Shown here piece after piece: positions 4,597-56,896 of a DNA stretch of 64,000 nucleotides. This DNA comes from an uncultured Gammaproteobacteria bacterium (GTDB lineage Bacteria > Patescibacteriota > Patescibacteriia > UBA9934): NCBI GenBank assembly GCA_964414795.1, contig CAYPWV010000001.1, positions 5,221-69,220 on the forward strand. The letters run 5' to 3'. The notes under the pieces were generated by a model, which did not search any database, had not been told where the DNA came from, and saw only the letters and a program-made list of their open reading frames with translations. The first letter of the stretch is position 1; each line of letters opens with the position of its first letter. The translations under genes and the position numbers were made by a program.

Positions 4597-4648
4597 ACTC
4601 TCGAAGGTCCTTCGGTCGACAAGAGTCTCCCTCAGGATGACACGGGTG
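4597..4648. repeat. Family B repeat, half copy
   Basis: GAAGGTCCTTCGGTCGAC...CTCCCTCAGGATGACAC matches the right half of element 1559-1674. Confidence 0.6.
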
Positions 4649-7435: not shown

Positions 7436-8419
7436 TTATTTCTTTTCAAGATCTTCATATATCTTTTTTGCTATGTGATAAGCAAAATTAACCGGCACGG
7501 CATTGCCAATCATTTTATAACCGTCAGCTACATCACGATATTTGAAAATAAAATCATCAGGAAATGTTTGTATTCTTGCACACTCTCTCACGGACAGACG
7601 GCGATACAAATCCTCTTTACCTGGAACGAAAATCCTTTCATTTTGAGAAATAAATTTCATTTTTGGGGCTTGTGGATGCAATGGGGCATGGCGACCTCCT
7701 GCCTGAATAGTAAATGAAGGCTCGTCCCATGAGCGTACACGATTTCTCGACATATATATTGTCGAAAATCCTCCTGTCATATACTCATGATTTGGAATTT
7801 TCAAACTGTCGCCATGGGTTTTGTTTTTTTCTAAAGCAGGTTCTGCTGAGCCTAAGTTATAAATTGCATCTTTCAAAACTGGCTTATATTTTTGTGGCTG
7901 AGGAAATTCAAACTTCTTTTTTAAGTCTTTTCTATAGCCAACGATAATAACACGCAAACGATCCTCTGGAACATCAAAATCATTTGCATTTAAAAGTTGG
8001 TATGAAATTGCATACCCAGCATTCTCGAATTCTTTTAAAATTGCATTAAATGCATCTGCGTGTTTTGGGTGCAAAATACCAGACACATTTTCTGCAAGGA
8101 AAAATTTTGGCTGCTTATCTTTTAAGATGCGAATATAGTCATAAAATAACTTACCTCTTTGGTCATCTATTCCCCTCCCCGCACCTGCCTCACTCCAACT
8201 TTGACATGGTGGTCCACCAACTATTCCATCGATAATTGGAACATCTTCACTTTTAACATCCGTAATACTTCGAGTATCTAGCGTTGTATTAGGAAAGTTT
8301 AATTTGAACGTATCCCAAATCGACGAATCATATTCATTTGCCCAAGCAATGTGAAAACCAGCTTTTTCAAAGCCCTTATCCAGCCCTCCTGCACCTGAAA
8401 AAAAAGAAGCTATTTTCAT
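7436..8419 (-). CDS. DNA (cytosine-5)-methyltransferase, HaeIII-like (predicted GGCC specificity)
   Basis: C5-MTase motifs FSGAGG (I), GGPPCQSWSEAG (IV), ENV (VI), RECARIQTFPDDF...GNAVPV (IX/X). Strong resemblance along the whole length to M.HaeIII as recalled from memory. AT-rich relative to its flanks. Confidence 0.9.
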   Translation of the reverse strand: MKIASFFSGAGGLDKGFEKAGFHIAWANEYDSSIWDTFKLNFPNTTLDTRSITDVKSEDVPIIDGIVGGPPCQSWSEAGAGRGIDDQRGKLFYDYIRILKDKQPKFFLAENVSGILHPKHADAFNAILKEFENAGYAISYQLLNANDFDVPEDRLRVIIVGYRKDLKKKFEFPQPQKYKPVLKDAIYNLGSAEPALEKNKTHGDSLKIPNHEYMTGGFSTIYMSRNRVRSWDEPSFTIQAGGRHAPLHPQAPKMKFISQNERIFVPGKEDLYRRLSVRECARIQTFPDDFIFKYRDVADGYKMIGNAVPVNFAYHIAKKIYEDLEKK

Positions 8420-8423
8420 AAAA

Positions 8424-9404
8424 TTAATCTTGACTAAGATTAAGAATATTTTTAAATAGTTTTTTAGGCGACTTTAAAAGATTGATATCAAACTTTAAAG
8501 AAGATTCAACCCGAGAACTTGCATTATGAATTCTAAAAGAAAGAGTCCAATCATTGTCCATTGTTACTATCACCGTGGTATCACTACCAGTTTTAAAATC
8601 AATATCAATAATCTCTGTCGGCAATGGAACTTTTGGAGTTTTATATTTAGGTTGAACATCCTTGAAAGGTAAATTCAAAGAACCATTTATATTATATGCA
8701 TGGATTTCCACTTTATTCTTACCCTTAACAACTTTATAAAAATCCCTATTTCCCACAAGATAAGCGACAAGATTTGATGCAACTTTAGTAGGATTTTCTT
8801 CTTGAAGACTTCTAAGTTCTTCGATAAATGCTTTTAAAATTGGAATGTAAATATCTGCATGATAGTCACCAATCTCGCTCCACTTTTTTGTAGCATTACT
8901 TTCTTTTCTGATCTTTTCTAAATTATTAAAAATCGGTATTACTTTATCAAAATAATTTTCAGAAACTTTAATACCAAACCATTTTTCGCCGAAATTAATG
9001 TTTGAAGAAAGTCTTGAGTGCTTTACTGCGTGATGATTATTTTTTGCGGATATACCTATTTCCCATTTCTGCAAAAGACGTATGACTAAAACATCACGCA
9101 CATCTCCAGATTTTCCTTTATCGTCAGATAAAATTTCAAGTTGAAGAATATCATCTTCACTGATATCGTTTGAAAGCCTTGGCTCAATATCCATTAAAAA
9201 ATTAACAGCAAAACTTGCAGAAAGAGAATATCCGCTTCGTTCTAAGTCTGACACACTGTCAAAACATTCTTTTGCAATCTGAAAAGAAGAATTTTTAATA
9301 ACCCGTACATTTGTTTTATTTTTAAGTTTTTCCTCGAATTGAACGAGTAGGGAGTATTCAAAGGATTTTCCGGTTATCATTTGTTTTGATTTTTTTGATG
9401 CCAT
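8424..9404 (-). CDS. Putative type II restriction endonuclease partner of the HaeIII-like methylase
   Basis: 326-aa AT-rich ORF 4 bp upstream of the methylase on the same strand. Its size matches HaeIII-family REases. The assignment rests on context; I recognised no catalytic motif. Confidence 0.55.
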   Translation of the reverse strand: MASKKSKQMITGKSFEYSLLVQFEEKLKNKTNVRVIKNSSFQIAKECFDSVSDLERSGYSLSASFAVNFLMDIEPRLSNDISEDDILQLEILSDDKGKSGDVRDVLVIRLLQKWEIGISAKNNHHAVKHSRLSSNINFGEKWFGIKVSENYFDKVIPIFNNLEKIRKESNATKKWSEIGDYHADIYIPILKAFIEELRSLQEENPTKVASNLVAYLVGNRDFYKVVKGKNKVEIHAYNINGSLNLPFKDVQPKYKTPKVPLPTEIIDIDFKTGSDTTVIVTMDNDWTLSFRIHNASSRVESSLKFDINLLKSPKKLFKNILNLSQD

Positions 9405-9416
9405 AAAGTTATTCTT

Positions 9417-11183
9417 CTATATTGTACCTCCTTTCTGTACATCCACTACGCGATACTGCAATGAACGCTTGCCGTTCCAGGTATTTACCTCAACTTCGTA
9501 GGCGATGTCGAGGTGATCGCCGGTACGAAGAACGGATGCGAGGTGACCAAAGCCAAACCCCACAAACGTTATTTGTTTACCGTTTAGTTCTCGCGTAACA
9601 AAACGAAGATGCGCACCCGTGGAACCCATGCGGACGGTTTCTTCAAGCATAAGATCGCGAGCTGCGAAAACGGGCGGGCGGTTTCCTTCGCCAAAAGGTG
9701 CGCATTGCATAAGAAGCGCATGAAGTTCCCAAGACACTTCAGAAGGTGCGTGCACCGCATCTACATGCAATACATCACACGGTCCATCTGCACCGTAATA
9801 GGCTTGCGCAAACGCATTTCCTCGTGCACGAAAAAGAGCAATCATGTCGGGATTATGTAAAGAAAGTCCACATGCTTGCGGATGACCTCCGCGCTTGATG
9901 TACAGCTCATCTCCGCACGCATTCATCAACTCAACAAGATGTAACCCGCCCAAACTTCTTCCCGAACCCACCACATGATCTCCCACATTGGTGAGCGCAA
10001 ACGCAGGCTTGCCAAAATCATTCTGCAAACGCCCCGCGATAAGACCAACGATGCCCGGAAGCCAATGCGGCGCATAGGCTACAAGCAACTGATCTTCCTT
10101 ATACTCTCGCTCTACTTGCTCAACCGCTTCTTTATACATTTGCTGAAACACTGACTGCCGATCACGATTCAATCGCTCGAGCACGTTTGCTTTTTCTACA
10201 GCTTCCTCAGGCGTTTTTGCGGATAATGTTTCAAACGCCGCCGAAGCAGACGCCATACGCCCCGCTGCATTCATCCGCGGTCCAATACGAAAACCAATTG
10301 CCGTCGTATCAATATCTGCAAACTCGGTTCCACTCATTTCTACAAGTGCGCGAAGTCCTGGACGACGCGTTTTTTGCAGCACGCGCAAACCGTAATATTC
10401 AAGCACGCGATTCTCTCCAATGAGTGGCATGACGTCGGTAACGGTTGCGATTGCCACCAAATCCAAAAACCATTTTTCATATCCTTGTGCGAATGCTGCT
10501 CCTCGTTTTTGCGCTTCGGTAATCAGTGCAGAGGCGAATTTGAAGGCAACTCCCGTGCCGCACAAGGTTTTGTTGGGATAGGTCTCTCCTGGAGCAGAAG
10601 GATGCAAAATAATGGCGTGCTCGGGAAAGTGCTGGCCCATTTGATGGTGATCGCACACGATGACTTGCATGCCGAGTTCGTGTGCTCGCCCAAGTTCAAC
10701 GCCATTTGCGATGCCACAATCAACCGTCACCAAAAGCTCTACGCCTTCCGACGCAAAACGCTCAATGGTATGCAACGCAACGCCGTAGCCATCTTTTTCT
10801 CGATCGGGGAGAAAGGTTACAACATTTGCCTGCCATCCCAACTTTTCTGCAATTTCTTGGAGCGCACCAAACAAGAGCGTTGTTCCGCTTACACCATCTG
10901 CATCATAATCGCCATGAATAACAATGCGTGCACCGCTTTCAAGCGCGTCCATCATCGTATCCACCGCCTCTTGCATACGCGTAAACGCAAACGGGCTGTG
11001 TGTTCCGCTTTCCCACGATGGCGTAAGAAATGATTCTTTCTGCTCCGGATCAATCCCGCGATTTACTAAAAGCTGTGCAAGGAGATCGTCCTGCACACGT
11101 TCAGCAACATGCCACTTTTTTGTTGAAAATGTCTTTTGTTTTTCTATAGAAAATAACCTTAGCAGATATTTCTTCTTCGCCAA
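9417..11183 (-). CDS. recJ: Single-stranded-DNA-specific exonuclease RecJ (DHH/DHHA1)
   Basis: HGDYDADGVSG, VIVCDHHQ (DHH motif), 588 aa. Confidence 0.85.
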   Translation of the reverse strand: MAKKKYLLRLFSIEKQKTFSTKKWHVAERVQDDLLAQLLVNRGIDPEQKESFLTPSWESGTHSPFAFTRMQEAVDTMMDALESGARIVIHGDYDADGVSGTTLLFGALQEIAEKLGWQANVVTFLPDREKDGYGVALHTIERFASEGVELLVTVDCGIANGVELGRAHELGMQVIVCDHHQMGQHFPEHAIILHPSAPGETYPNKTLCGTGVAFKFASALITEAQKRGAAFAQGYEKWFLDLVAIATVTDVMPLIGENRVLEYYGLRVLQKTRRPGLRALVEMSGTEFADIDTTAIGFRIGPRMNAAGRMASASAAFETLSAKTPEEAVEKANVLERLNRDRQSVFQQMYKEAVEQVEREYKEDQLLVAYAPHWLPGIVGLIAGRLQNDFGKPAFALTNVGDHVVGSGRSLGGLHLVELMNACGDELYIKRGGHPQACGLSLHNPDMIALFRARGNAFAQAYYGADGPCDVLHVDAVHAPSEVSWELHALLMQCAPFGEGNRPPVFAARDLMLEETVRMGSTGAHLRFVTRELNGKQITFVGFGFGHLASVLRTGDHLDIAYEVEVNTWNGKRSLQYRVVDVQKGGTI

Positions 11184-11198: not shown

Positions 11199-12278
11199 CT
11201 AAAGTATTTCAAGCGCATCATGCACAATGCGTTCATCGGCGTTTACGGGGAAGATACGACGAATGCGTTCGGCGTGTTCCTGACGATAAGCAGTTGATTG
11301 CACCATTTTGAGGATAGCCTGGAGAAGTACTTGAGGTGTCATTTGGTAGATTACTTCAGCAGCTTCTTGCGCCTGCAGTGCTTTGGCATTTTCTTCTTGT
11401 TGTGATCCCGGAATGGGAATGATAATGGATGGCTTACCAAGCGCTACAAGCTCGGAAATAGTCCCCATGCCCGCACGAGAAACCACCACATCAGCAACCG
11501 CGTACGCATCTGCCATACCTTCATGCAAAAATTCAAGTGCGATATACGGTTTTCCTTGCTCTTGAAATGTCTGTAACGCAGGGAGCATTTTTCCTCGACC
11601 GGTTAAATGAATAACATTCGCGCAGCGTAAAAGATCTTCTGCAATAATAAGCATCGTTTCATTGAGCGAGGATGCTCCTGTTCCGCCACCCATAACAAGC
11701 ACGGTGGGAAGATCGGCACGCAAAACGTAGCGATCGCGCGCACTTACCCGATCGCCCAGCGCCAACATGCTGCGCACCATCGTTCCCACTACGCTTGTTT
11801 TTTTTGCCGCATACGCTGCAGTACTTTCTGGCCACGTGACGCTTATACGTTTTGCAAAAGGCGCCATGATGCGATTTGCAAGCCCCGGGCGCACATCAAG
11901 TTCGTGAATCCATACCGGAATACGCATACACCACGCCACTAAAACAACAGGCAGAGAAACATACGCTCCCGCAGAAAAAACCATGTCGGGACGCATGTTT
12001 TTAAGTATTTTTGCGGCTTGCCACACACTCCACATCATGTGAAAAGGAATGAAGGGATACGTCCACTTGCGATAGCGATCCATACGAGGAGCAGAAAGCG
12101 AAAGAAAAGGAATTTTCGCACCCTCAACAAGCAGTCGTTCGGGACCTTTTGGCGTACCGATCCACGAACACCGCACATCCGGATCGCGCCTGCGCCACTG
12201 CGCCGCAACCGAAAGCAAGGGCGTTACCGGCCCAAGCGTTCCCCCGCCCGTGAAGAGAATGTGATGAGAAGAAGACAT
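11199..12278 (-). CDS. murG: Undecaprenyl-PP-MurNAc-pentapeptide UDP-GlcNAc transferase (GT28)
   Basis: N-terminal GGGTLGP glycine motif, VMGGGTGASSLN C-terminal donor-binding motif. Lies in the murG-ftsW-mraY neighbourhood. Confidence 0.75.
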   Translation of the reverse strand: MSSSHHILFTGGGTLGPVTPLLSVAAQWRRRDPDVRCSWIGTPKGPERLLVEGAKIPFLSLSAPRMDRYRKWTYPFIPFHMMWSVWQAAKILKNMRPDMVFSAGAYVSLPVVLVAWCMRIPVWIHELDVRPGLANRIMAPFAKRISVTWPESTAAYAAKKTSVVGTMVRSMLALGDRVSARDRYVLRADLPTVLVMGGGTGASSLNETMLIIAEDLLRCANVIHLTGRGKMLPALQTFQEQGKPYIALEFLHEGMADAYAVADVVVSRAGMGTISELVALGKPSIIIPIPGSQQEENAKALQAQEAAEVIYQMTPQVLLQAILKMVQSTAYRQEHAERIRRIFPVNADERIVHDALEIL

Positions 12279-12280: not shown

Positions 12281-12497
12281 GTGAGAGTGTGAAGTTTGTA
12301 GTTGTTAGTTTGAAGTGAGTGGATGTTGTTTTTTATTGGAATGAAAGACAGCAGACGACAGATGGGGAAAGTAATCGGGGCTGTATTGTATTTAGGTGAG
12401 CAGATCATTTCTCTTATCCGTCGTCTGCTGTCTGTAGTCTGCTATCTCAAAAGAACTACCTTTCACTTCAAACTAACAACTACAAACTTCAAACCTT
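12281..12497. repeat. Family C long palindromic element (~215 bp; arms AGTTTGAAGTGAAAGG.../...CCTTTCACTTCAAACT, core GACAGCAGACGACAGA.../...TCTGTCGTCTGCTGTC)
   Basis: Nested inverted repeats seen directly. It starts 3 nt after the murG start codon (its 5'-UTR side) and overlaps the last codons of pyrG. Confidence 0.75.
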
Positions 12498-14114
12498 TCC
12501 CAAAGCTGCCTTCACAAATCCCACAAACAACGGATGCGGCGACAAAGGACGCGATTGAAACTCTGGATGAAATTGTACTCCTACAAAAAATGGATGATCT
12601 TTCAGCTCGACGATTTCCACTAACGTTCCGTCGGGAGAAATGCCCGAGATCACGAGACCCGCACGTTCTAGCTCGGTTTTATACGCGTTATTAAACTCGT
12701 ACCGATGGCGATGACGTTCTGAAATCTCATCACTTCCATACGCATTTCTCGCAACGCTTCCCTTCTTGAGATTGCACACATACGAACCTAAACGCAGTGT
12801 TCCTCCCAATCCTTTTCCTTTCAGCTTTTCATCTTGTCCGTGCATTAAATGAATAACGGGATGTGCGGTTTTTGGATTTATCTCCTCTGTATGCGCATCC
12901 TTCCATCCCAGCTCCGTACGTGCAAACGCAATCACTGCACACTGCATACCGTAACACAATCCCAAATACGGAATCTTATGCTTTCGCACAAAGGTGATCG
13001 CCGCAATCTTTCCCTCAATTCCTCGCGATCCAAATCCTCCGGGAATAAGGATACCGTCGTACTGCAATAATTCTTCGAGTGCTTTGGGATCTTTTTCGTA
13101 GGCTTCGGCGTTGAGCCATTCGATAACTGGTTTTGCGTTTTGCGCCCACGCCGCGTGCTTAATTGCCTCAAGCACCGAAAGATAGGCGTCGGACAACAGA
13201 AAATCTCCTGTTGAAAAATACTTTCCAATAACGCCGATACGCACCTCCTTTTTTGCAGAAATAATCGTGGTTACCATCTTTTTCCACGCAACAAGATCGG
13301 GAGCTTTTTTGCGTTTTCCAAAGGATTTTAACACCGTGTCCGCAAAACCTTGTTCCTCAAACACCAACGGCACCTCATAAATAGAACGCACATTCGGTGC
13401 GGCGATGATATGATCGGGCGTTACTCCGCAAAACCTACTCAACTTTTCTCTTCGCGGCGCATCAAGCGCAGTTTCCGATCGACACAGCAAAAAATCAGGC
13501 GCAATACCTACGCGATTCATTTCACGCACCGCATGTTGTGTGGGCTTTGTTTTCATTTCGCCAATAGAAGGAGGCACGGGAAGATAACTCACAAGCACAC
13601 TGCGCACCTGCTTCGGCGTATGCAATTGCATCATGCGAATGGCTTCCAAAAAAAGAATATTTTCATATTCTCCCACCGTTCCCCCGACCTCAATCAACGT
13701 AAAATCTGCCTTTGCCTCTTTTGCTGCTCGCTCAATGCGTGCAATCACCTCTTCAGGAACGCGAGGAACCACCTCAACACATTTCCCCCCATATTCACCT
13801 CGCCGTTCACGCTCAATAACCGATAAATAAATACGCCCCGTGGTCATGTAATTCTTTTTGGTGATGTTGATATCTAAAAATCGTTCGTAGTTTCCAATAT
13901 CTTGATCCGTCTCATCCCCATCTACCGTTACAAAAACTTCCCCATGCTCAACCGGGTTCATCGTTCCCGCGTCGACGTTTACGTACGGATCAATTTTGAT
14001 TGCCGTCACCGTATATCCTCGCGCGCGAAGTAAAAGCCCCAGCGATGCTGTTGACGTTCCCTTTCCCACGCCACTCATCACGCCACCGACTACGAAGATG
14101 TATTTGTGTTGCAT
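12489..14114 (-). CDS. pyrG: CTP synthase
   Basis: MQHKYIFVVGGVMSGVGKGTSTASLG N-terminus, GATase domain with GLCYGMQ. Confidence 0.95.
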   Translation of the reverse strand: MQHKYIFVVGGVMSGVGKGTSTASLGLLLRARGYTVTAIKIDPYVNVDAGTMNPVEHGEVFVTVDGDETDQDIGNYERFLDINITKKNYMTTGRIYLSVIERERRGEYGGKCVEVVPRVPEEVIARIERAAKEAKADFTLIEVGGTVGEYENILFLEAIRMMQLHTPKQVRSVLVSYLPVPPSIGEMKTKPTQHAVREMNRVGIAPDFLLCRSETALDAPRREKLSRFCGVTPDHIIAAPNVRSIYEVPLVFEEQGFADTVLKSFGKRKKAPDLVAWKKMVTTIISAKKEVRIGVIGKYFSTGDFLLSDAYLSVLEAIKHAAWAQNAKPVIEWLNAEAYEKDPKALEELLQYDGILIPGGFGSRGIEGKIAAITFVRKHKIPYLGLCYGMQCAVIAFARTELGWKDAHTEEINPKTAHPVIHLMHGQDEKLKGKGLGGTLRLGSYVCNLKKGSVARNAYGSDEISERHRHRYEFNNAYKTELERAGLVISGISPDGTLVEIVELKDHPFFVGVQFHPEFQSRPLSPHPLFVGFVKAALGKV

Positions 14115-17458: not shown

Positions 17459-17603
17459 GTTCATGTGGTTAAAATGGTTAAAGTGTTCTGTTCTCGATGC
17501 TCACAGAAACTATTTAACCATTTTGACCAACTTAACCTCCCTTCAAAAACAATAGGCCGCCCACGGTGGACGGTCCTGAACGAAAACGAAGATCAAGAAA
17601 GAA

Positions 17604-17723: not shown

Positions 17724-17825
17724 GAAACACTCCCACTTGTTAGAGGCGATAAAAAAATACCAAAATATTCAATAAAAAGCAATTTAATCATCTTAACCGC
17801 TTAACCCTTCTCCCAAAAAAACAAG

Positions 17826-17849
17826 AGGCCGCCCACGGTGGACGGCCCC
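17826..17849 (-). terminator. Intrinsic terminator of small-ORF cassette copy 2 (hairpin GGCCGCCCACGGTGGACGGCC plus T-run on the minus strand). It is near-identical to the hairpin at 17554-17576.
   Basis: Seen directly. Both copies are followed on the minus strand by TTGTTTTT. Confidence 0.55.
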
Positions 17850-17865
17850 GGAGAACGGAAACTCG

Positions 17866-19072: not shown

Positions 19073-20264
19073 GAGTACGAGTTACTACCTGATCGGGCGT
19101 AATACCTGCCTTATCAATAGAACGACCTTGCGGCGTGAGCCAACGTGCAACCGTAATTTTTACCGCACTGCCATCGGGTAAATCTTGATATTCTTGCACA
19201 CTGCCTTTTCCAAAGGTTTGTTCGCCAATAAGTGTGGCGAGACCGTAATCTTGGAGTGCCCCTGAAAAGATTTCAGACGCAGAAGCGCTTCCACCGTTGA
19301 CGAGTACCACCGTTGGCGTATTTGCAAAACGTGCATCACCATCACCCGGAAAAGCCGTACGATCTCCCCGAATTTCTTCTTGCACAACGGTTTGATTTCC
19401 CGTCCAGTATCCCGAAAGCGCAATTGCCGCATCAAGATATCCTCCAGGATTGTTCCGGAGATCCACGATAATACCTTTGACGTGCGCGTTTTGCAGCGTG
19501 TCTGCCGCTTCTGCAAAACCTGCAATTGTATCGTCACCAAAAACACTTACCGAAACAACACCAATGCCATCAGGGCGAATGGTTGTTTTTACACTGTGGT
19601 TTTTAATTTCGTCACGTGTGATGGTAACTGTGCGCGAATCTGCATCTTCTGTTCCAAAAAGCACCAAGGTAACATTGGTTCCTTTTTCTCCCCGAATTTT
19701 TCCTACCGCTTCAGAAACGGTCATGCCTGCCGTATCCACGCCGTCAATCGACAAAATAACATCACCTGCACGAACGCCCGCATTTTCTGCGGGAGTATCC
19801 GCAATGGGTGCAACAACAACCAAACTTCCTTCATCATTTAGCCCAAGCTCTGCACCAATGCCAAAGAATGTTCCCGAAAGTTCTTCGGAAAAATCTTCCG
19901 CCATCTCGGGCGTGAAGTACGTTGAGTACGGATCCTTTAATCCGTAAAGTAAGCCCTGTAATGCGCCTTCAAATAAATCTTCGTCGGAAACAGGCTGATC
20001 GACATATTTTTCTCGTACTAATGCCCAAACTTGCCAAAATAACGTGAAGTCAACATCTTGTGCAATATCTGCGGGAACGGTTACCGTGGTGCCAAAAATT
20101 TCTTCTGCCTGAGTATCATAAAAAAGCTCAGGTCCCTTTCCATAGACGTATCCCCCAAAAAACAATGCACCTGCGGCGCCTACACAAAGAAAGATTTTTA
20201 CCGGCATCCACAGTGTCCGCCACGGTGTGTGGGGGTTTGTAGACATATAGGAAGAGTGTATCAT
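19005..20264 (-). CDS. ctpA: Carboxyl-terminal processing protease (S41) with PDZ domain
   Basis: PDZ segment plus GIIVDLRNNPGGYL S41 motif and catalytic Ser/Lys region; N-terminal TM. Confidence 0.85.
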   Translation of the reverse strand: MIHSSYMSTNPHTPWRTLWMPVKIFLCVGAAGALFFGGYVYGKGPELFYDTQAEEIFGTTVTVPADIAQDVDFTLFWQVWALVREKYVDQPVSDEDLFEGALQGLLYGLKDPYSTYFTPEMAEDFSEELSGTFFGIGAELGLNDEGSLVVVAPIADTPAENAGVRAGDVILSIDGVDTAGMTVSEAVGKIRGEKGTNVTLVLFGTEDADSRTVTITRDEIKNHSVKTTIRPDGIGVVSVSVFGDDTIAGFAEAADTLQNAHVKGIIVDLRNNPGGYLDAAIALSGYWTGNQTVVQEEIRGDRTAFPGDGDARFANTPTVVLVNGGSASASEIFSGALQDYGLATLIGEQTFGKGSVQEYQDLPDGSAVKITVARWLTPQGRSIDKAGITPDQVVTRTLDDYHANLDPQLDAAISFFTTK

Positions 20265-20267: not shown

Positions 20268-20468
20268 AAGGAAAAGTTAGGAAGTTATTAGTTAGAAGCT
20301 TGAAGTGAAAGGTAGTTCCTTCGGGATAACAGACTACAGACAGCAAACGACAGATAAGAAATACCTGATTCTGATCACTTTCCCCATCTGCCGTCTGTAG
20401 TCTGCCGTCCTCACAAACAAAAACACCCTCCACTCACTTCAAACTACCGACTACAAACTTCAAACCCT
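20268..20468. repeat. Family C long palindromic element (full length)
   Basis: GAAGTGAAAGGTAGTTCC...GGAACTACC-like arms and GACAGCAAACGACAGA core. Lies between the divergent ctpA (starts 4 nt after the ctpA ATG) and PEGA genes. Confidence 0.75.
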
Positions 20469-20476
20469 TCCCTCCT

Positions 20477-21445
20477 ATGCTTCCCTACGCCATTCGCAAA
20501 GCTCTGTTCTTTCTTTTTGTAGGTATCTTCTTTGTTTCCGCACCTCTTGTGGTGCTGTATACGGCGGGATACCGATTCAATCGAGGAAATAACACGGTTT
20601 CACAAACGGGTACGCTCGCCATTGCAAGTACGCCAAAAGGAGCGGATATCGTCATCAACAATGAAATGCTTAACGACACCACACCAGCTGTTTTACAACG
20701 TCTTTCTCTGGGAACGCGCACTGTTCACATAGAGAAAGAGGGCTACCATACGTGGGAACGTACGGCGAATGTACAAAGCGGCGCAACAACGTATATCACC
20801 GCACCTCTTTTTCTTGATGAACTTCCCGTTCTTTTAGCACAGGGCGGAACGGATTGGGAACGCGCACAAACGGCGCACGCCGCAAAAATCACCGAACTTC
20901 CCGATACTATTCTCTTTACACCTTCATCCGCAGGCATTGAGGTGTATAAAACATCCCTTACCGGATCCACGTTCATCACCCTCCTTCAAAAGGATACCTA
21001 CACTCCCCTTGCAGCCGATCGCGAAAATCTTTTTGTAAAAAATAGTAAAGGCGAACTCTTTTTTATTGCACTCAGTTCGTCGCAAGCTGCGCAATCGCTG
21101 GGAAAAGATGCGGTTGCTTTTGCATGGGATGCGCACGAGCAGCTCTTTGCCTGGAGCGATGGCCTTGAGGTACATCTTTTTCATCCTGCTACTCGCATGC
21201 AAGAACTCATCACCCGTCAAAGCGATGCAATTACTGCGCTGACATTTGCGCATAGCGGCGAAAGCATTGTTCTTGCGTCCATCATGGGTCTTACGGGTAT
21301 TGATTTGCTTGCCTATACCGATGGACGCATGCAAACATCTCTCCTTTCGTTTGATGAACCAACAACGGTATGGTTTTCTGAAGACGGAAGCATTGCTTAT
21401 CTTGAAACGGCACAAAATCTTTCCTCGCTTGCAATCACGCCGTAA
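20477..21445 (+). CDS. PEGA domain-containing membrane-anchored protein
   Basis: N-terminal TM then PEGA-like segment (IASTPKGADIVINNEML...TVHIEKEGYHTWE). Confidence 0.65.
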   Translation: MLPYAIRKALFFLFVGIFFVSAPLVVLYTAGYRFNRGNNTVSQTGTLAIASTPKGADIVINNEMLNDTTPAVLQRLSLGTRTVHIEKEGYHTWERTANVQSGATTYITAPLFLDELPVLLAQGGTDWERAQTAHAAKITELPDTILFTPSSAGIEVYKTSLTGSTFITLLQKDTYTPLAADRENLFVKNSKGELFFIALSSSQAAQSLGKDAVAFAWDAHEQLFAWSDGLEVHLFHPATRMQELITRQSDAITALTFAHSGESIVLASIMGLTGIDLLAYTDGRMQTSLLSFDEPTTVWFSEDGSIAYLETAQNLSSLAITP

Positions 21446-27778: not shown

Positions 27779-27996
27779 TTCTGCGGTTCCAAAATCCGCA
27801 GTTTGTTTTGCGTTTGTCGTTGCGGGAATAATGGAAGAAAAGATTCATTCTCAGGAACGGCAATGATCTCAGTGTCGATGCCATGCTCCGCAAGCATGTT
27901 ATGTAGTTGCTCATCGAGAGAACGCTCTCGATGATCATCTTCCCTATCTACCGTCCGTCGTCTGCCATCTTTTTCTTGCTCTTGAGAATCACTCAT
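27775..27996 (-). CDS. Small charged hypothetical protein (73 aa)
   Basis: In operon. Contains a short family-C-like motif (CCGTCCGTCGTCTGCC) in-frame. Confidence 0.35.
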   Translation of the reverse strand: MSDSQEQEKDGRRRTVDREDDHRERSLDEQLHNMLAEHGIDTEIIAVPENESFLPLFPQRQTQNKLRILEPQK

Positions 27997-30360: not shown

Positions 30361-32137
30361 ACAACGTTTCTTCGTTGAGGGTTATGACGGGAGTGAAAAT
30401 GATGTTTTCCTGCGCAAAGACGACGTCGTGGAGATACGCGAGATCTGATTGAGGAAACGTGATGCCGAAATAATAAAGCGGCGATGTAGCAAGAAGTTCG
30501 GGAATTGCGCGATATGTTTTTTCATCTCTCAACGGCACGATGACTGCACGATCGGGCCAGAGATATTTATCTGCACGATCGACAATAATGATTGCATCTT
30601 TGGGCGTAGATGCAAGAATGTTCGCTTGCTTTTCTGCAAACGTTGCAAGAGCTTCGCGCGTACGGAGCACGCCGTCATCACCTGTAAAGACGAGATGAGC
30701 TGAAAACAAAGTCATTCCTACGATACAAACAAGCGGGAGAGCGACGATGATCTTTTTCATCCATATCCTTTGCACGAACGAATGTGAAAAGTTTTTCACA
30801 TGGAGCAATGCATATGCCGTTGCAGGAGCAAGTGCTACAAACACCGGCAACCAATACCGCGTATGAGAATTTCCTAAAGAAATAATAGATGGATCGGGAT
30901 TATCAAAAAATGTCCAACTGCCGTAGAGAATGAGGAGGTAGAGGAGCGACACGGTGAGCAAAAGAAAAGAGACGGCAGAAGGCAGAAGGCAGAAAAGAAC
31001 TGTGAATTGAGAATGTCTGTCGTCTGCTGTCTGCTGTCTGTAAGCTCCAATCCATTTCTTCACAACCCCCCACACCAAACACCCCACACCCCCTACCCCC
31101 ACCACCGTCATCCACGGATACAACGCAAAAACATATCTCCACACGTTTTTCAGCGTTGCACGTTCATGAAATCCAAACGGAAAAAGAATGGCGAATACTT
31201 TTTCATACCACGGAATAATTGCACCTTGCGCAATGGTTCCGCCTACTTCCCATACCGGCTGACTCACCGTGTATCCCGTAATAAATGGCGATCCGTAGAT
31301 TGATGCATGCAAAAATAGCGTGATGCCAATCATGATTCCGCATCCTAAAAAGAGAGCGATGGCATCACAAAAAGACAGTTTTTTAGCGATGGATGCCTGC
31401 CTACCGGACAGGCAGGCCGGATCAAGTCCGACATGACGAGAAGCGAACCCCACGCCACGTCGTTCGCGAACGACGTGGCACCCCCAACACCCCACCCCCA
31501 ACACCCCTCCTATAATCCACACCCACTCAGAAGGACGAATTGCAAGTGCAGACGCAAACATGCCTCCTGCACAAAAAAGAAAAAAATATCGTGTACGCGA
31601 GTTCTCTTTCTTAATCGCCACAAGCACCATCCACACCGCAATCAACAACAGCGCAACAAAAGGCACGTTCGGCATAAGCGAACGGATACTGTAATACCAC
31701 CACGCCGGATGTACCGCGAGCGCAACAACACTCAGCAGCGCAAATTCCTGCGATCCACCCAAACGACGAATAATGCCGTACAGCGCACAAAGACCGAGGA
31801 TACAAAAAATCGGCCCCGTACTCACGGCAAGATACGGCGAAAAAAAGAAAAGTAATCCCGCAATGTACGGCATGCCCAAAAATCCTGCGGGGACGATTGC
31901 GGCACCGACCGTGGTTGTACTTCGCGGATGAAGCATGCCGTGCAAAGAAATGTTTCTCGCCTCATCACTTTTTGCAACGCCTGTTTCAGCGATGCTCTGC
32001 GCAAATGCCCATGTTGCATGTTCATCGGGCGAAACGAAGAGGTCATCGCGGGTTGCGTACGGAATCGCAAGAGAAAAAAGTGATGCACCGTAAGCAAGAG
32101 CAAGTGCTACGCAGGCAATTTTTTTAAGCGTGCTCAT
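30341..32137 (-). CDS. GT-C fold membrane glycosyltransferase (ArnT/PMT-like). It contains in-frame copies of repeat families A and C.
   Basis: Multi-TM N-terminal half with an early DE-containing loop (ATRDDLFVSPDE), large C-terminal soluble domain. Confidence 0.5.
   Translation of the reverse strand: MSTLKKIACVALALAYGASLFSLAIPYATRDDLFVSPDEHATWAFAQSIAETGVAKSDEARNISLHGMLHPRSTTTVGAAIVPAGFLGMPYIAGLLFFFSPYLAVSTGPIFCILGLCALYGIIRRLGGSQEFALLSVVALAVHPAWWYYSIRSLMPNVPFVALLLIAVWMVLVAIKKENSRTRYFFLFCAGGMFASALAIRPSEWVWIIGGVLGVGCWGCHVVRERRGVGFASRHVGLDPACLSGRQASIAKKLSFCDAIALFLGCGIMIGITLFLHASIYGSPFITGYTVSQPVWEVGGTIAQGAIIPWYEKVFAILFPFGFHERATLKNVWRYVFALYPWMTVVGVGGVGCLVWGVVKKWIGAYRQQTADDRHSQFTVLFCLLPSAVSFLLLTVSLLYLLILYGSWTFFDNPDPSIISLGNSHTRYWLPVFVALAPATAYALLHVKNFSHSFVQRIWMKKIIVALPLVCIVGMTLFSAHLVFTGDDGVLRTREALATFAEKQANILASTPKDAIIIVDRADKYLWPDRAVIVPLRDEKTYRAIPELLATSPLYYFGITFPQSDLAYLHDVVFAQENIIFTPVITLNEETLYAITRE
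30955..31040. repeat. Family C core motif (CAGACAGCAGACAGCAGACGACAGACA...) inside the GT-C CDS, in-frame
   Basis: Encodes ...LLPSAVSFLLLTV... with no stop codon. Confidence 0.6.
31386..31484. repeat. Family A palindromic element inserted in-frame in the GT-C CDS
   Basis: GCGATGGATGCCTGCCTACCGGACAGGCAGGCCGGATCAAGTCCGACATGACG plus a CCACGTCGTTCGCGAACGACGTGG palindrome. Translates as ...HVVRERRGVGFASRHVGLDPACLSGRQASIAKK... Confidence 0.7.
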
Positions 32138-32731: not shown

Positions 32732-34795
32732 ATGGTAACAGAATCTATGCGCCGTGTCTTTCTTGCTCTCACGTTTCTTTCCTGCGTTTCTCTGCTGGGA
32801 TCTGCGGTTTATTATACAAGCATCATTACACCAGGAACGCTCGTGCTGGCAACTTTAGGGGCGCTCTTGGTGACAGCGGGAATGGATCACTTCTTCGTCA
32901 TCCCGGATCAAGTCCGGCATGACGAAAAACAAAAAAACAAGATGACCGATACGGTGATCCGCCACTACGTTCTCTTCCTCATCGGTCTCTCCTCCCTCAT
33001 CATCTTTGTCTTCCTCGCGATCACCCATCCCATCACTACTGCTACCCGATCACTCTGGCTCCTCTTTTCTCCGACACACATTGTATTTTTGACGATCGCG
33101 TTTTTTTGTACGATTTTATTATATAAAAAACAAGAGGGCGGATACGTTGATCCGCCCCTACACGATCGACCGCCGCGGTACGCGGCGATTCTTGGCGGTC
33201 TGATTGCATTCGTCACGTCTGCACTTGCGGCGATACTCTTTCCACTAGGATTTGGATTCGATCCTTTTCTTCATCGCGCAACACTCGAGCACATCGCAAC
33301 ATTCGGAACCATCACGCCAAAACCACTGTATTACATCGGTGCGTACGCTCTTGAACTTTGTGGAAATCTTTTGCTTCGTATTCCATTATTTTCTCTTGAT
33401 GTTTTTTTGGCTCCAGTTGGATTTGCGTTTCTCGTTTTTATTGCAGTCCGTAGCAAGCAATTGCATCCCGCAATCCTCGCACTCCTTCCCTTTTCTGCAT
33501 TCGTGAGCACAACGCCGCAAGCCATAGGATTTTTGTGGATTTTTGCCGTGATTCTTGCGTTGAAAAATAATCTTCCGCAGTTGTATCTTTGGCTTTTTGC
33601 ACTTGCCGCACTTGCCGCGCATCCTATTGCCGGCGTTCCGGCGGTGATTTTGGTAACGATCTATTGTCTGTTGAACACGAAACGGAACAAAACGAACCAC
33701 GACAAGGTGGCCGATACGGTGATCGGCCACTACGGATCTATTCTTACCACCATTTTCATTATTCTCGGCATCCTCGCACTTCCGCTCATGTTCTTTGCGC
33801 AGCAGCTCATTACCGGCATGAACGTAGGATTTTCTTGGGTAGCGTTTACGGATTTTTCTCGCATTCCTTCTCTTGGATTTTTCTCGATGCAGGGACATGC
33901 GCTCATGGATACCGTCATGCTGTTTGGTGGAAATGTTTTTTTCATCACGGTGATTCTTGCAATTATTGGATTCATCGTGACTTTGGGTCAACGAAAAATC
34001 AATGCTAGATCTTTCGCACAATCACTCGCACTTTTGCTTGCAAGTATCGTTGCACTGGGTAACTTTGTGATGCTCAGTTTAGGATTTGATTTTCCGTTTC
34101 TCATTTCGTACGAACGTACCGATTTTGCGTTGCGACTGGTAACGATTGCGTGGATATTTCTTTTGCCCCTTGCGTCGGATGGAATGAAAAGGATTATAGG
34201 AATTGTGACGGAATGGAAATTACGCAAATCAGAAACACGATATTTAGAATCACATAGGGACGAATTGAGGACGTACGGGCGGGTTTTAAACCCGCCCCTG
34301 CATACGCGTCTAAAAAATGCCTACGGCATTTTACTCATTCTCATCCTTTTCTCCGCAAATATTTACACCACCTTTCCTCGACACGATGGCTACACGCGAT
34401 CGGCGGCGTTCAATGTTACTGTCGCAGATACCGAAATCGTCCACCGCATTGCCGATGATGCTGCAGGTGAATCCTACGCCGTACTCAGCAATCAAACGCT
34501 TGCTTCGATGGCTATCCAAGAATTTGGCTTTTTCCAGTACTTTCATAACAACATCTTCGCCTACCCCATCCCTACCAGCGGCCCACTCTACACGCTCTTT
34601 CTTACCATGATTACAACTCCCAATCTTGAAACTATTGCACAAGCTCACGATCTCACCGGCGCATCTCGCATCTACTTCGTGGTGCACAACTACTGGTGGG
34701 AAGCCGATCTTCGCATTGCCGAAACAAAAAAAATCGCAGACGCATATTTCACGTCTGCTGATGGAACGATTACCGTATTTGTCTTTTCCAGATAA
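32732..34795 (+). CDS. Large polytopic membrane protein of unknown function (about 690 aa). It has an internal protein-level duplication and in-frame copies of three different repeat families.
   Basis: More than 12 predicted TM helices. Start inferred at MVTESMRRVF. Repeats at 32896-32923 (A), 33136-33157 (F) and 34277-34297 (E) are all translated without stops. Confidence 0.5.
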   Translation: MVTESMRRVFLALTFLSCVSLLGSAVYYTSIITPGTLVLATLGALLVTAGMDHFFVIPDQVRHDEKQKNKMTDTVIRHYVLFLIGLSSLIIFVFLAITHPITTATRSLWLLFSPTHIVFLTIAFFCTILLYKKQEGGYVDPPLHDRPPRYAAILGGLIAFVTSALAAILFPLGFGFDPFLHRATLEHIATFGTITPKPLYYIGAYALELCGNLLLRIPLFSLDVFLAPVGFAFLVFIAVRSKQLHPAILALLPFSAFVSTTPQAIGFLWIFAVILALKNNLPQLYLWLFALAALAAHPIAGVPAVILVTIYCLLNTKRNKTNHDKVADTVIGHYGSILTTIFIILGILALPLMFFAQQLITGMNVGFSWVAFTDFSRIPSLGFFSMQGHALMDTVMLFGGNVFFITVILAIIGFIVTLGQRKINARSFAQSLALLLASIVALGNFVMLSLGFDFPFLISYERTDFALRLVTIAWIFLLPLASDGMKRIIGIVTEWKLRKSETRYLESHRDELRTYGRVLNPPLHTRLKNAYGILLILILFSANIYTTFPRHDGYTRSAAFNVTVADTEIVHRIADDAAGESYAVLSNQTLASMAIQEFGFFQYFHNNIFAYPIPTSGPLYTLFLTMITTPNLETIAQAHDLTGASRIYFVVHNYWWEADLRIAETKKIADAYFTSADGTITVFVFSR
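32896..32923. repeat. Family A minimal palindrome (CGTCATCCCGGATCAAGTCCGGCATGACG) in-frame in CDS
   Basis: Encodes FFVIPDQVRHDEK. Confidence 0.6.
33136..33157. repeat. Family F hairpin repeat GGGCGGATACGTTGATCCGCCC (in-frame in CDS; second copy at 63841-63862)
   Basis: Seen directly; encodes EGGYVDPPL. Confidence 0.6.
34277..34297. repeat. Family E hairpin repeat GGGCGGGTTTTAAACCCGCCC (in-frame in CDS; other copies at 42514-42536 and 47696-47716)
   Basis: Perfect palindrome seen directly; encodes GRVLNPPL. Confidence 0.65.
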
Positions 34796-35333: not shown

Positions 35334-35426
35334 AAGCGTGCCGGAAAAGAGGGCTAGAAAATAGCTTATATAAAACAAAAAAGAGCGGTGAGGCTCTTTT
35401 GGGAAATTTGAGGAATTTGTTGCATT

Positions 35427-35534
35427 CGTCATGCCGGACTTGATCCGGTCTGCCTGTCCGGTAGGCAGGCATCCATCGTTTTTAACCCCATCTTTCTTGA
35501 TGCGATGGATCCCGGGTCGGTGCCCGGGATGACG
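35427..35534. repeat. Family A palindromic element, full-length intergenic copy (CGTCATGCCGGACTTGATCCGG...CCGGGTCGGTGCCCGGGATGACG)
   Basis: Terminal inverted repeats and internal palindromes seen directly. Confidence 0.75.
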
Positions 35535-36767: not shown

Positions 36768-37907
36768 TCAATCTACAGTACTCTGGCCTGTATAGGCTCG
36801 CAAGAGCGCCGCTTGCTCGGTGTGGAGTGTGGCGTCGTGCATAACTTTTTTATAGGCTTCTTGTCCGAACGTAATACGTTCTTGCTTGTTTTTTGCGAGA
36901 CGCACAAGCGCACTTGTAAGCAAGGCGATATTTCCTGGTTCAACATGTAATCCTGTTTTTTCATGCATCACAAGTGATCGAACTCCGGGGAGTGCGCTCA
37001 CGATCGACGGGATGCCCGACGCTCCTGCTTCGCACGTTACAAGCCCATATGCTTCTGCCCCACTTACCGAAGGCAACACATGCACATCTGCCGCCTGATA
37101 CACGCTAGGAAGATTGGCAAAAGAAACGCCCCCAAAAAACGTTATGCGGTCCGTAATGTCCAATTCATGCGCAAGCTGCTCGTATACTAAGCGGAGATCA
37201 CCATCGCCCACCAACCACAATTGCGCACGGATATCAGAAGGCATTTTTGCAAACGCATGGAGAAGAACGGAGACTCCTTTAAAAGCATGTGCGCGATCCA
37301 TTCCACCCACAAAAAGAAAAACGCACGTGTCATCTGAAATATGCTTTTCTTTCCGCAACTCGGTATTCCTTTGCGGCGTAAATCGACGATCATCAATACC
37401 GAAGGGAATAATCATCGTCTTGTGTTTTGGAAGATCAAGAAGCGAGGCGTAATCATCGGAACTCACACAGAGAACATCCGCAAAACGCTTTACAAGCGGC
37501 TCCTCGAATACACGATGCAAAAAGAAGAGTACTCGTCGCACAAACGCGTGACGCTCGGCTTGCGCGCGCATATGCCAAGAAACAACCAGTCGCTTTTTGG
37601 CAATTTTCGTCATGACTACGACGGAAAATGCCGTACCAAAAAAGGGATAATGAAGATGGACAACATCGGCTTGCTGTATTTCTTGCCACATTTTTTTCAA
37701 CGGAAGTATCGCTGCGTTTCCCCATGCGTACACAGGCTGCATATGCAAAACGTCTTCATTCGTTGCTTCATTCTTTTTAGAATACTTTGGGGTAACGACT
37801 CGCACATTATGTCCCGCTTCGCGCATCAATTGCACTTCTTGCGCCACAACCGCACCCATACCGCCCTTGTAGGGAGGATAGACGGGGGAGAAGACGAGGA
37901 GGCGCAT
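36768..37907 (-). CDS. Glycosyltransferase family 4
   Basis: MRLLVFSPVYPPYKGGMGAV N-terminus, GT1-type C-domain. Confidence 0.8.
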   Translation of the reverse strand: MRLLVFSPVYPPYKGGMGAVVAQEVQLMREAGHNVRVVTPKYSKKNEATNEDVLHMQPVYAWGNAAILPLKKMWQEIQQADVVHLHYPFFGTAFSVVVMTKIAKKRLVVSWHMRAQAERHAFVRRVLFFLHRVFEEPLVKRFADVLCVSSDDYASLLDLPKHKTMIIPFGIDDRRFTPQRNTELRKEKHISDDTCVFLFVGGMDRAHAFKGVSVLLHAFAKMPSDIRAQLWLVGDGDLRLVYEQLAHELDITDRITFFGGVSFANLPSVYQAADVHVLPSVSGAEAYGLVTCEAGASGIPSIVSALPGVRSLVMHEKTGLHVEPGNIALLTSALVRLAKNKQERITFGQEAYKKVMHDATLHTEQAALLRAYTGQSTVD

Positions 37908-37909
37908 AG

Positions 37910-38090
37910 AGGTAGGGAAAGTTTGAAGTTTGGAGTTGGTAGTTTGAAGTGAAAGGATGTTCTGTTTTAGCGTGTCATCCTGAGGGAGTGCTACGTCGAC
38001 CGAAGGAACTTCCAGACGACAGACTGCAGAAGGCAGATGGGGAAAATGAAAGAACTGAGAGAACTGAGAGTGAGGATGGCATTAGTTAGT
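37910..38090. repeat. Family C element (left arm and core) with a nested family B half-copy (37968-38020)
   Basis: AGTTTGAAGTTTGGAGTTGGTAGTTTGAAGTGAAAGGATG arm is identical to the copy at 52305. The right arm is missing. It starts 3 nt after the GT4 start codon. Confidence 0.7.
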
Positions 38091-38283
38091 GTCGAGTGGT
38101 TGTAAATTCGTCTTTGATGAGAGGAACAAAATGTAACATATATTTAACATCGAATGTAAAAGATATGTTACATTTCGTCGAGGTGACAAATGGGCGCGAT
38201 AGGTCCTTCGCTGTCGCTCAGGATCCTGCACGTCACATCTTCATCTCTTCCCAACTTCATCACTTCAGAACTTCCCAACTTCC

Positions 38284-38634
38284 CTACTTCCCTTCCTCCT
38301 TCTTTCCCGGAACTTTAGCGTTCGCGAGGGCGATTTTACGAACGAGTTCGGTGATTTCGGCGTGCATGGTTTGCGTGCGCACGAGGACACGATAGACGGT
38401 ATACAAAAGGACGAGAACCGCAATGTATACAAGCATATCTGCACCTCGCTCTACACCCACGAGATGCGCAACTTCATCGGTTGCGTGAGGGATGAGTGCC
38501 GCAAGCGCAATAAGTGTCCATATACCCGAAAAAGCAAGAAGCCAGTAGCGTGAAACTTGTTCTTTTTTATATTGCCCGTACGTTCGCAAAATAACGATTG
38601 CCGCAAAAACGATAATTCCTATTTGAAAAAGCAT
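38284..38634 (-). CDS. Small membrane protein (DUF2304-like) commonly paired with GT2 enzymes
   Basis: 116 aa, 3 TM, lies immediately downstream of the GT2 gene. Confidence 0.45.
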   Translation of the reverse strand: MLFQIGIIVFAAIVILRTYGQYKKEQVSRYWLLAFSGIWTLIALAALIPHATDEVAHLVGVERGADMLVYIAVLVLLYTVYRVLVRTQTMHAEITELVRKIALANAKVPGKKEEGK

Positions 38635-42454: not shown

Positions 42455-42513
42455 ACAAACAAAATACCGACGCTTTCGATTTGCAACTATGTACGTACAG
42501 GCGGTTGCTTGTA

Positions 42514-42536
42514 CGGGCGGGTTTTAAACCCACCCC
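42514..42536. repeat. Family E hairpin (GGGCGGGTTTTAAACCCACCC) immediately after the stop of the TPR gene
   Basis: Seen directly. It acts as a likely terminator hairpin for a minus-strand gene. Confidence 0.6.
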
Positions 42537-47523: not shown

Positions 47524-47695
47524 TAAAGAATTGGCTCTTTTACCCCAGAGCCGGGGGTGAGTGTGAAGAAGGACAAAGCCGGCCCTGCGGCCTCGACTTT
47601 TACTGGATTTGTCAGGGATGCGAACGCCATCCCTTCAGAGGCCATCACGTGGGGTGATGATGTCTAAAGGAAGGGTGTTGTAGAGGCGGGGGTAG

Positions 47696-47716
47696 GGGCG
47701 GGTTTTAAACCCGCCC
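47696..47716. repeat. Family E hairpin (GGGGCGGGTTTTAAACCCGCCC) after the stop of the anti-sigma-like gene and inside the 5' leader of the giant gene
   Basis: Seen directly. Confidence 0.6.
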
Positions 47717-47738
47717 GTACAAGCCCCCCGCCCTTGCG

Positions 47739-55919: not shown

Positions 55920-55966
55920 GGAGACTATCCCTTGACAGCACCTATACCACGTGTTAATATAGTGGC

Positions 55967-56824: not shown

Positions 56825-56896
56825 TAATCGCATCAAAATCTTCGACAGTTATAGCCTTATTTTTAGCGGGTTTATTTTTCATATCTTAATAATACA

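Follow-up and report, generated by a model that had tools for sequence, protein, structure and literature searches.

Family C palindromic repeats at the gene junctions of a Patescibacteria genome: probable MITE-like elements

The window, by which is meant the whole stretch of 64,000 nucleotides analyzed here, belongs to a Patescibacteria genome and carries a set of long palindromic repeats, termed family C, at the junctions of pyrG with murG, of ctpA with a PEGA-domain gene, and of two GT4 genes with a DUF2304 gene and with wzy. An earlier note, made from the sequence alone, had described four near-full-length copies and several fragments, and had taken them for cis-regulatory RNA structures or promoter-carrying MITEs (miniature inverted-repeat transposable elements) that serve the cell envelope. 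The family is indeed present where it had been placed and lies far above chance expectation: the arm motif AGTTTGAAGTGAAAGG has 8 matches in the window (at most 3 mismatches) against 0.83 expected, a count reached in 0 of 100 shuffles, and the core motif GACAGCAGACGACAGA has 15 matches against 0.45 expected. All four reported loci were recovered as direct and inverted repeat families by a repeat search of the window, and the identities that had been given for the flanking genes (murG, ctpA, and two GT4 genes) were confirmed with Pfam, the neighbors being MurG, an S41/CtpA-like peptidase, two GT4 enzymes, CTP synthase, Wzy_C, a PEGA protein, and L20. The census of the window comprises three full palindromes, one composite, one lone arm (at rplT), one in-frame core insert (in the GT-C gene), and a weak core fragment, as follows.

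12281-12500: copy c1, a full palindrome that constitutes the entire pyrG-murG spacer (outer arms 12281-12332 and 12449-12500; heptad core 12346-12433)
20268-20473: copy c2, a full palindrome, inverted relative to c1 and c4, that constitutes the entire divergent ctpA/PEGA spacer
37908-38300: copy c3, a composite of ~390 bp between the DUF2304 gene and a GT4 gene (3' arm and half core 37908-38050; 5' arm ~38236-38300; unrelated small palindromes nested between them)
37971-38016: small palindrome nested inside c3, GTGTCATCCTGAGGGAG…CGACCGAAGGA, which forms repeat pairs with 1634-1675 and 4599-4644
52305-52514: copy c4, a full palindrome that constitutes the wzy-GT4 spacer
62559-62611, plus strand: lone 3' arm between rpmI and rplT, whose end is 2 nt short of the rplT ATG (62614)
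30963-31050, minus strand: core-only mini-palindrome, in frame within a hypervariable loop of the GT-C (PMT_2-like) gene and translated as …YRQQTADDRHSQFTVLFCLLPSAVS…
27954-27988, minus strand: weak core-like fragment (3/16 mismatches) within a small open reading frame (ORF), possibly a relic or a chance match

Copies c1, c2, and c4 are full, and c3 is not truncated at 38090 but possesses a distant second arm. Among the previously described fragments, the in-frame GT-C insert and the lone arm between rpmI and rplT stand, whereas the piece in the small ORF is a weak match. Syntenic loci of relatives (L005, L072-L074, and L076-L079) were obtained via homologues of MurG, GT-C, and Wzy; the GT-C orthologue in L076 (~11027-11109) carries a core insert in the same loop, so that in-frame inserts occur in two species. 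Small palindromes of other types are found at 62477-62558, just upstream of the lone rplT arm, and a further palindrome (AAATGTAACATAT…ATATGTTACATTT, 38125-38172) lies in the middle of c3, upstream of the GT4 gene, where it could be an operator/promoter or another nested repeat.

The elements are composed throughout of degenerate 7-nt units. Between the family C termini (GGKRARRGTTTGAAG… and …CTTCAAAC), the modules are ordered as an outer arm of (GAAGTNN)n, which reads (NNACTTC)n on the other side, a conserved inner arm (AGTTTGAAGTGAAAGG / CCTTTCACTTCAAACT), a T-/A-rich stretch, a core of (AGACNNC)n / (GNNGTCT)n units, and a short variable loop, followed by the mirror image of the whole. Arms of 46-53 nt within a copy are 75-87% complementary, and c1, c2, and c4 are predicted to fold on either strand as imperfect hairpins with a stem of ~100 bp and energies of -69 to -101 kcal/mol (-91 and -101 kcal/mol for the two strands of c1). 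As a consequence of the heptad-unit construction, either strand is nearly free of C in its 5' half and nearly free of G in its 3' half. The C-poor 5' arm presents TGA or TAG in all three frames within ~40 nt on either strand (nearly all copy-orientations have stop codons in three frames in the first 40 nt, with two frames in 3 of the 18 examined), and the last 65 nt contain only 0-5 G in 17 of 18 copy-orientations and usually lack ATG, GTG, and TTG.

The boundaries between elements and genes are precise. Start codons lie 1-7 nt past an arm terminus at murG (12278), the two GT4 genes (37907 and 52302), the PEGA gene (20477, plus strand), and rplT (62614, plus strand), and the upstream genes pyrG, wzy, and DUF2304 all have their stop codons inside the opposite arm of the element, as detailed below.

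12276-12278, minus strand: murG start codon, 2 nt past the c1 terminus (…CTCTCACCT ATG); the N-terminus aligns with those of orthologues (MSHHILFTGGG)
12489-12491, minus strand: pyrG stop codon (TGA), provided by the c1 5' arm; the pyrG C-terminus departs from orthologues after …FVKAA
20244-20246, minus strand: true ctpA start, which gives a protein of 413 aa whose length and N-terminus match five orthologues
20255-20264, minus strand: native extended -10-like box of ctpA, ATGATACACT, which contains the ATG formerly taken as the start
20477-20479, plus strand: start of the PEGA-domain gene, 3-5 nt past the other terminus of c2
37905-37907, minus strand: GT4 start, immediately after the c3 terminus (…CCCTACCTCT ATG)
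38284-38286, minus strand: DUF2304 stop codon (TAG), within the c3 5' arm
52300-52302, minus strand: GT4 start, 2 nt past the c4 terminus (…CTCTCCCCT ATG)
52494-52496, minus strand: stop codon (TAA) of wzy (O-antigen-ligase-like), ~18 nt into the c4 5' arm

The earlier note had each element begin 3-4 nt from the ATG of a minus-strand gene; at ctpA, however, the ATG in question (20264) is part of the -10-like box. The five CtpA orthologues, all of 413 aa and beginning MSTNPH/MATTPD, align with the ATG at 20246, and the arrangement TG(A/G)TACACT, 8 nt, and ATG is conserved at ctpA in six genomes; judging by its likeness to sigma-70 promoters, the box is probably an extended -10 promoter element, and c2 ends exactly at it, 18 nt from the true ATG. 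In addition, c2 adjoins the plus-strand PEGA ATG, and the rplT arm is on the plus strand. Two side observations concern these boundaries. The murG N-terminus (12264-12278) reads MSSSHH in the window and MSHH in L072/L073, the two additional TCT codons adjoining the element terminus; in L078 (4860-5124), the gene caller set the GT4 start ~70 nt too far downstream, and the orthologous ATG (…CTTCCCCT ATG CGA ATC TTG CAC) comes after a 3' arm of family C.

The lack of a Shine-Dalgarno sequence, which had been reported as a trait of the element-bearing genes, is true of them but applies to nearly all genes of the window, whose leaders read, for example, …TTCCT ATG or …CACCCT ATG. Native genes possess -10-like boxes (GGTAnAAT, TGnTACACT, TATAAT) 6-19 nt before the ATG (e.g., upstream of 14114, 18557, 54692, 55967, 16706, and 40353), with T at -1 in 58%, which suggests that very short or absent leaders are the norm in the lineage. 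In a hexamer search for the native -10 motif, hexamers of the arms dominated the signal (small sample). As a general claim, the notion that the short leaders of ordinary genes derive from the ends of elements was rejected, since arm pentamers are at most two-fold enriched once the recognized arms are masked, and only T at -1 stands out.

Searches with the exact 21-nt arm pattern among GTDB species representatives (which do not include the genome of the window) returned real copies only in the metagenome-assembled genome (MAG) H41-bin180_1, plus two chance matches, and of the 65 loci returned by a metagenome scan, only Hainich H41 contigs, which are of the same organism as this MAG, carry real copies. 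Three segments of the H41 contigs, ~2.9 kb together, are 71-82% identical to the window at the nucleotide level; the assignment of the window to the Patescibacteria is based on this identity and on homologues whose source names include Patescibacteria group bacterium, Candidatus Uhrbacteria, and Candidatus Parcubacteria. An exact look-up of the MurG sequence of the window returned no match. The remaining metagenome loci (~33-nt matches) were set aside: their matches, offset by 7, suggest (GAAGTTT)n-like tandem repeats that are unrelated to the family. No blastn match to the element was obtained in phage and plasmid collections, and no family match in Rfam, where only generic hairpins (miRNA precursors) were hit far below threshold (E up to 1).

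With an nhmmer profile built from 22 arms, the position of the arms was surveyed in 287 kb of sequence, made up of the window, nine non-redundant H41 contigs, and the eight relatives. This census yielded 29 arms, 17 of which terminate 1-11 nt short of the ATG of an ORF that encodes at least 80 aa; among random intergenic positions and orientations, just 2.9% are followed by a start at 0-11 nt (binomial P ~3e-19, orthologous sites not being independent). Two of these 17 are the ctpA sites of the window and L076, at which the -10-like box had its TG scored as an ATG. In L077, the arm in front of the S8 peptidase gene ends at a -10-like box, TGnnAnACT, the ATG being 20 nt past its terminus, and an element in L040 fills the spacer between tRNA-Tyr and tRNA-Thr genes, 3-6 nt from each (only its tRNA-Tyr-facing arm is among the 29 nhmmer hits). 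Most other arms, judged by eye, adjoin the stop codon of a gene running into the element (L056 6083 left out), and start-facing and stop-facing termini appear similar (by eye, unscored). No orientation preference is evident, with the A-type end facing a start 6 times and the B-type end twice (hand count). The position bias noticed earlier is therefore real: it is strongly non-random and recurs in other genomes, and it is a bias toward gene boundaries in general.

Comparison of orthologous junctions shows that occupancy varies between close relatives. The pyrG-murG junction is filled in the window only, with spacers of 2-23 nt in L005, L072, L073, and L074 (MurG 81-87% identical), and L079 has no element between wzy and GT4 (TAA T ATG), L078 keeping only a 3' arm beside a different palindrome. 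Conversely, the junctions of a PDZ gene with a 212-aa gene and of an AI-2E transporter gene with a 127-aa gene are filled in the H41 MAG (L008) and consist of 13-nt and 2-nt spacers in the window. The PEGA/ctpA spacer is occupied by full copies in the window, L076, and L077, by degenerate copies in L073 and L005, and by a 39-nt spacer in L072; the DUF2304-GT4 junction carries elements in the window, L076 (4187-4363), and L077 (5017-5121). Degenerate or partial copies at orthologous sites were thus seen in L073, L005, L077, and L078, and lone 3' arms are kept before rplT, GT4, HIT, and S8 peptidase genes. Change can be rapid, as the PEGA/ctpA copies of L076 and L077 differ by several heptad-sized indels despite CtpA proteins that are 95% identical.

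These observations place family C close to MITEs: the elements have the size of MITEs (below ~600 bp), are non-coding, dispersed, and multi-copy, carry terminal inverted repeats, and differ in presence or absence at four orthologous junctions (pyrG-murG, wzy-GT4, PDZ-212-aa, and AI-2E-127-aa). Taken together, the presence/absence differences, the nesting, the in-frame insert within a gene, and the copy flanked by tRNA genes on both sides speak for a repeat that is mobile, in opposition to the earlier view that the elements are not selfish DNA. The preferred reading, to which a probability of roughly 0.65 is assigned, is that family C consists of non-autonomous, MITE-like palindromic repeats of this Patescibacteria lineage, which colonize and replace junction spacers and whose effects on neighboring genes are incidental or at most locally co-opted. 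Gain and loss of copies would take about as long as the divergence of species, and copies would survive almost only where they replace a short spacer, whether between stop and start, between stop and -10 box, or between tRNA genes. By virtue of the three-frame stops in the 5' arm, an upstream ORF running into the element ends within a few codons; because the 3' arm is almost G-free, it usually offers no ATG, GTG, or TTG and has no Shine-Dalgarno-like run, and the downstream gene receives a clean leader. The 3' arm ends in a pyrimidine-rich …YCCT(A)TG context, as found at ordinary genes of this genome. Within operons, the element would be transcribed through as a hairpin with a stem of ~100 bp. 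Pairing of its arms would bring together, at the stem base, the stop codon, 0-20 nt into the 5' arm, and the start codon, 1-7 nt past the 3' arm. When a ribosome terminates on the upstream gene, it may melt this base and free the start region, and translational coupling would thereby survive insertion. Unmasking of a start codon by a terminating ribosome is classical, being known from phage MS2 and from the E. coli rpmI-rplT pair. Any effects on neighbors would, in that case, result incidentally from where the element lies, as for the Correia elements of Neisseria, and would not amount to dedicated control of the envelope.

Several points nevertheless weigh against this account. No clean target-site duplication is discernible: TA occurs at both ends in four H41 copies (L008, L023, L031b, and L037a) and at one end in most others, a signal that is confounded because TA is also part of TAA/TAG stops and of the T-ATG start context, and the same codon composition masks any target motif. 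The window yielded no transposase whose terminal repeats match those of family C; its sole insertion sequence (IS), of the IS1595 family, has unrelated ends. In 3/3 comparisons of filled with empty sites, the native spacer and sometimes the last upstream codons are missing from the filled allele; as the spacer is replaced and not interrupted, plain transposition is no explanation. Furthermore, PEGA/ctpA and DUF2304-GT4 keep full copies across species whose CtpA proteins are only 85% identical, and the PEGA/ctpA elements are 78-86% identical over aligned bases, compared with 54-74% at ctpA third codon positions (78% against 54% for the species with 85% identical CtpA), a difference that could reflect constraint, although low complexity inflates the figure for the elements. 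Lone arms in the clade of the window face starts in 5 cases and stops in 0 (small hand count). Finally, the evidence base consists of 64 kb of the source genome and ~220 kb from relatives.

The explanation originally offered, a cell-envelope regulon that the elements coordinate as cis-regulatory leader RNAs or as MITEs carrying a promoter, is judged to be very unlikely. Its appeal lies in the fact that 5/6 window genes adjoining arm termini are envelope genes, in the resemblance, albeit loose, of the last heptad, TTCA(A/C)ACT, to the TACACT -10 box of the clade, at 6-12 nt before an ATG or tRNA start, and in the divergent PEGA/ctpA spacer, which is element in its entirety in three species, so that the element must sit in or beside the expression signals of both genes. 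However, envelope or polysaccharide genes make up ~40% of the ~60 window genes (by our own classification of Pfam hits), and 5/6 is consequently barely unusual (P ~0.05, hand calculation). The genes downstream of arm termini comprise MurG, GT4, PEGA, CtpA, an epimerase, a penicillin-binding protein transpeptidase, UDP-glucose dehydrogenase, and diacylglycerol kinase, but also L20, NrdR, the ATP synthase alpha subunit (AtpA), a HIT protein, an S8 peptidase, and tRNA-Thr. Conservation upstream of orthologues, as expected of a leader RNA, is confined to two junctions, the murG and GT4 orthologues of relatives with the same operons being without the element. Nor does RNA structure appear to be under selection: arms are no more alike within copies (identity 0.58-0.80) than between copies (0.64-0.80), RNAalifold on ten cores detects no structure-specific covariation and returns an unfavorable term (+0.86), and the retention of core pairs mostly reflects conservation of the sequence as such. 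In c1 and c4, the gene-sense strand is the poorer folder and the antisense strand the more stable one, and at the PEGA/ctpA site the better-folding strand varies between species; the lack of a strand bias and the similarity (by eye) of start- and stop-facing termini also weigh against this explanation. As for a promoter-carrying element, consensus scans of c1, c2, and c4 returned 0 sigma-70-like sites, and also 0 terminator-like sites of the kind expected of SPRITE-type terminators (a G+C-rich stem with a T run after it).

A domesticated junction module, mobile in origin and now selected as a general intercistronic cassette, is a more serious contender, if still an unlikely one. In such a module, the hairpin might set translational coupling or RNase III processing, and the G-free, CAA-rich 3' arm might be a leader or enhancer independent of Shine-Dalgarno pairing, or a weak outward promoter for mRNAs with very short leaders. 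Termini at 1-7 nt from start codons in two lineages, stop and start codons that both lie at the stem base, native promoters so close to the ATG that short or absent leaders are normal, the retention of the lone 3' arms, and the persistence of copies that seem more conserved than synonymous sites at two junctions are all consistent with this idea. Many orthologous junctions, on the other hand, function without the element, decay and heptad indels are rapid, and neither an orientation preference, nor better folding of the sense strand in c1 and c4, nor covariation is seen. A specific version, put forward even more tentatively, is that the lineage has turned a selfish repeat into a signal for gene boundaries in general, either with the terminating ribosome unmasking the G-free, CAA-rich leader for coupling or re-initiation free of Shine-Dalgarno sequences, or with the terminal heptad functioning, for near-leaderless mRNAs and tRNA precursors, as a weak -10 box. 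Least probable of all is an origin other than transposition, in which the heptad arrays bind a DNA-binding protein (for nucleoid organization, segregation, or replication) or arise locally by slippage or template switching. The 7-nt periodicity of the whole element, the replacement of spacers, and the failure to find either a transposase or a clear target-site duplication would suit such an origin; long specific motifs and a module order shared by unrelated loci indicate dispersal from common sources, and one copy lies within a coding loop and another between tRNA genes.

Repeats of this kind, here read as MITE-like, are already known from other bacteria, while the host group is unexpected and the placement unusually precise. 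In behavior, the closest analogues are the Correia elements (CREE/NEMIS) of Neisseria, MITEs ~100-150 bp long in which terminal inverted repeats enclose a conserved core. Most copies are located 5' of genes, in one case ending on the A of an ATG, and the elements are co-transcribed as RNase III hairpins, vary in occupancy between strains, and can give rise to promoters at either end (PMC2649163). Family C shares with them the inverted repeats, the core, the placement at gene 5' ends, and the variable occupancy, and, by predicted folding, a hairpin. Unlike Correia elements, to which it has no sequence similarity, it has arms that are heptad arrays of strong strand asymmetry (C-free versus G-free), contains no IHF site and no -35/-10 match that could be found, and replaces the whole spacer together with the upstream stop codon. 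Rickettsia palindromic elements (RPE) insert in frame within genes of a reduced genome and are also found between genes (PMC10969869). Compared by behavior only, they resemble family C in that palindromic repeats are tolerated in frame within a small, host-dependent genome, as in the GT-C loop; about half of RPE copies lie in genes and encode a conserved peptide, whereas family C is overwhelmingly found at junctions, its core module being the sole part seen within a gene. The ERIC/IRU, BOX/RUP/SPRITE, and REP/BIME/REPIN repeats are likewise short dispersed hairpin repeats that are transcribed in operons and vary between strains (for such repeats, see PMC2229807 and PMC3049150). None of this group has sequence similarity to family C, and REP/REPIN sequences differ in clustering at gene 3' ends, while family C arms face starts more often than stops, and in depending on a RAYT (Y1) transposase, a family that did not turn up in Pfam scans of 50 window ORFs. 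Intergenic repeats and MITEs of heptanucleotide period are also represented by the STRR heptamer repeats and Nezha-type MITEs of cyanobacteria. STRR arrays are tandem, belong to another taxon, and have another sequence; they are not long palindromes adjoining start codons.

Genomes of the Patescibacteria, or Candidate Phyla Radiation (CPR), measure ~1 Mb and are usually seen as streamlined, and a full-text literature search found no paper on MITEs or palindromic intergenic repeats in the group. The present lineage carries several nested palindromic repeat families, and the fast turnover of one of them at operon junctions implies that repeat dynamics like those of Neisseria and Rickettsia extend to CPR bacteria. 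There are practical consequences as well: the elements shift gene-start calls (ctpA in the window, GT4 in L078), change protein C-termini (pyrG and wzy), add peptides to a membrane glycosyltransferase, and will probably cause breaks in metagenome assemblies. Close relatives with filled and with empty junctions also constitute natural experiments on translation start and coupling without Shine-Dalgarno sequences. Should the recruitment of a junction cassette prove true, a selfish repeat would have been made into a general gene-boundary signal in a minimal genome.

Other repeats and genes of the window may be of interest in their own right. At least two further small palindromic repeat families are present, namely the palindromes GTGTCATCCTGAGGGAG…CGACCGAAGGA / GATCCTGAGC…CGAAGGATC and a second family, GGAYCCTTCCTATCGTCAGGRTC. 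Such small palindromes recur at 1634-1675, 4599-4644, 37971-38016, 62477-62503, and 62536-62558, as well as in H41 (L023 2530-2560 and L056 1600-1640), and are often nested in or adjoin family C elements in both the window and the H41 MAG. Repeated G+C-rich hairpins at 17545-17576, 17817-17853, 32935-33162, 33700-33734, and 63833-63867, and at 34273-34302, 42511-42540, and 47692-47721, are of the types GGCCGCCCACGGTGGACGGCC, followed by a T run on the minus strand, and GGGCGGGTTTTAAACCCGCCC, and look like shared intrinsic terminators or another repeat family. Elsewhere in the GT-C gene (31354-31511), the additional residues VVRERRGVGFAS and LSFCDAIAL, lineage-specific, in frame, and missing from nine orthologues, fall on other palindromic repeats, among which is an 86-nt inverted match to 35426-35511, and on low-complexity, G-rich runs that are seen too at 437-475.

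The IS1595-family IS (55921-57893; G+C 0.41) encodes a transposase at 55967-56824 on the plus strand (DDE_Tnp_IS1595, zinc ribbon) and a passenger ORF of 319 aa without a Pfam match at 56897-57856 on the minus strand, is bounded by 24-bp terminal inverted repeats of the form G(G/C)(A/C)GACTATCCCTTGACAGCACCT, and is missing from the syntenic H41 contig (L008 3799-3803). A tmRNA gene at 61003-61416 on the minus strand, upstream of infC-rpmI-rplT, is the sole Rfam match at gathering score (RF00023, 86 bits) and was not reported by ARAGORN. Lastly, a HaeIII-like restriction-modification pair at 7436-9404 (C5 cytosine methylase, 7436-8419; RE_HaeIII endonuclease, 8424-9404; G+C 0.38-0.41) lies between RecJ and RNase H, which are adjacent in L005, L073, and L074, and therefore looks like a horizontally acquired island.

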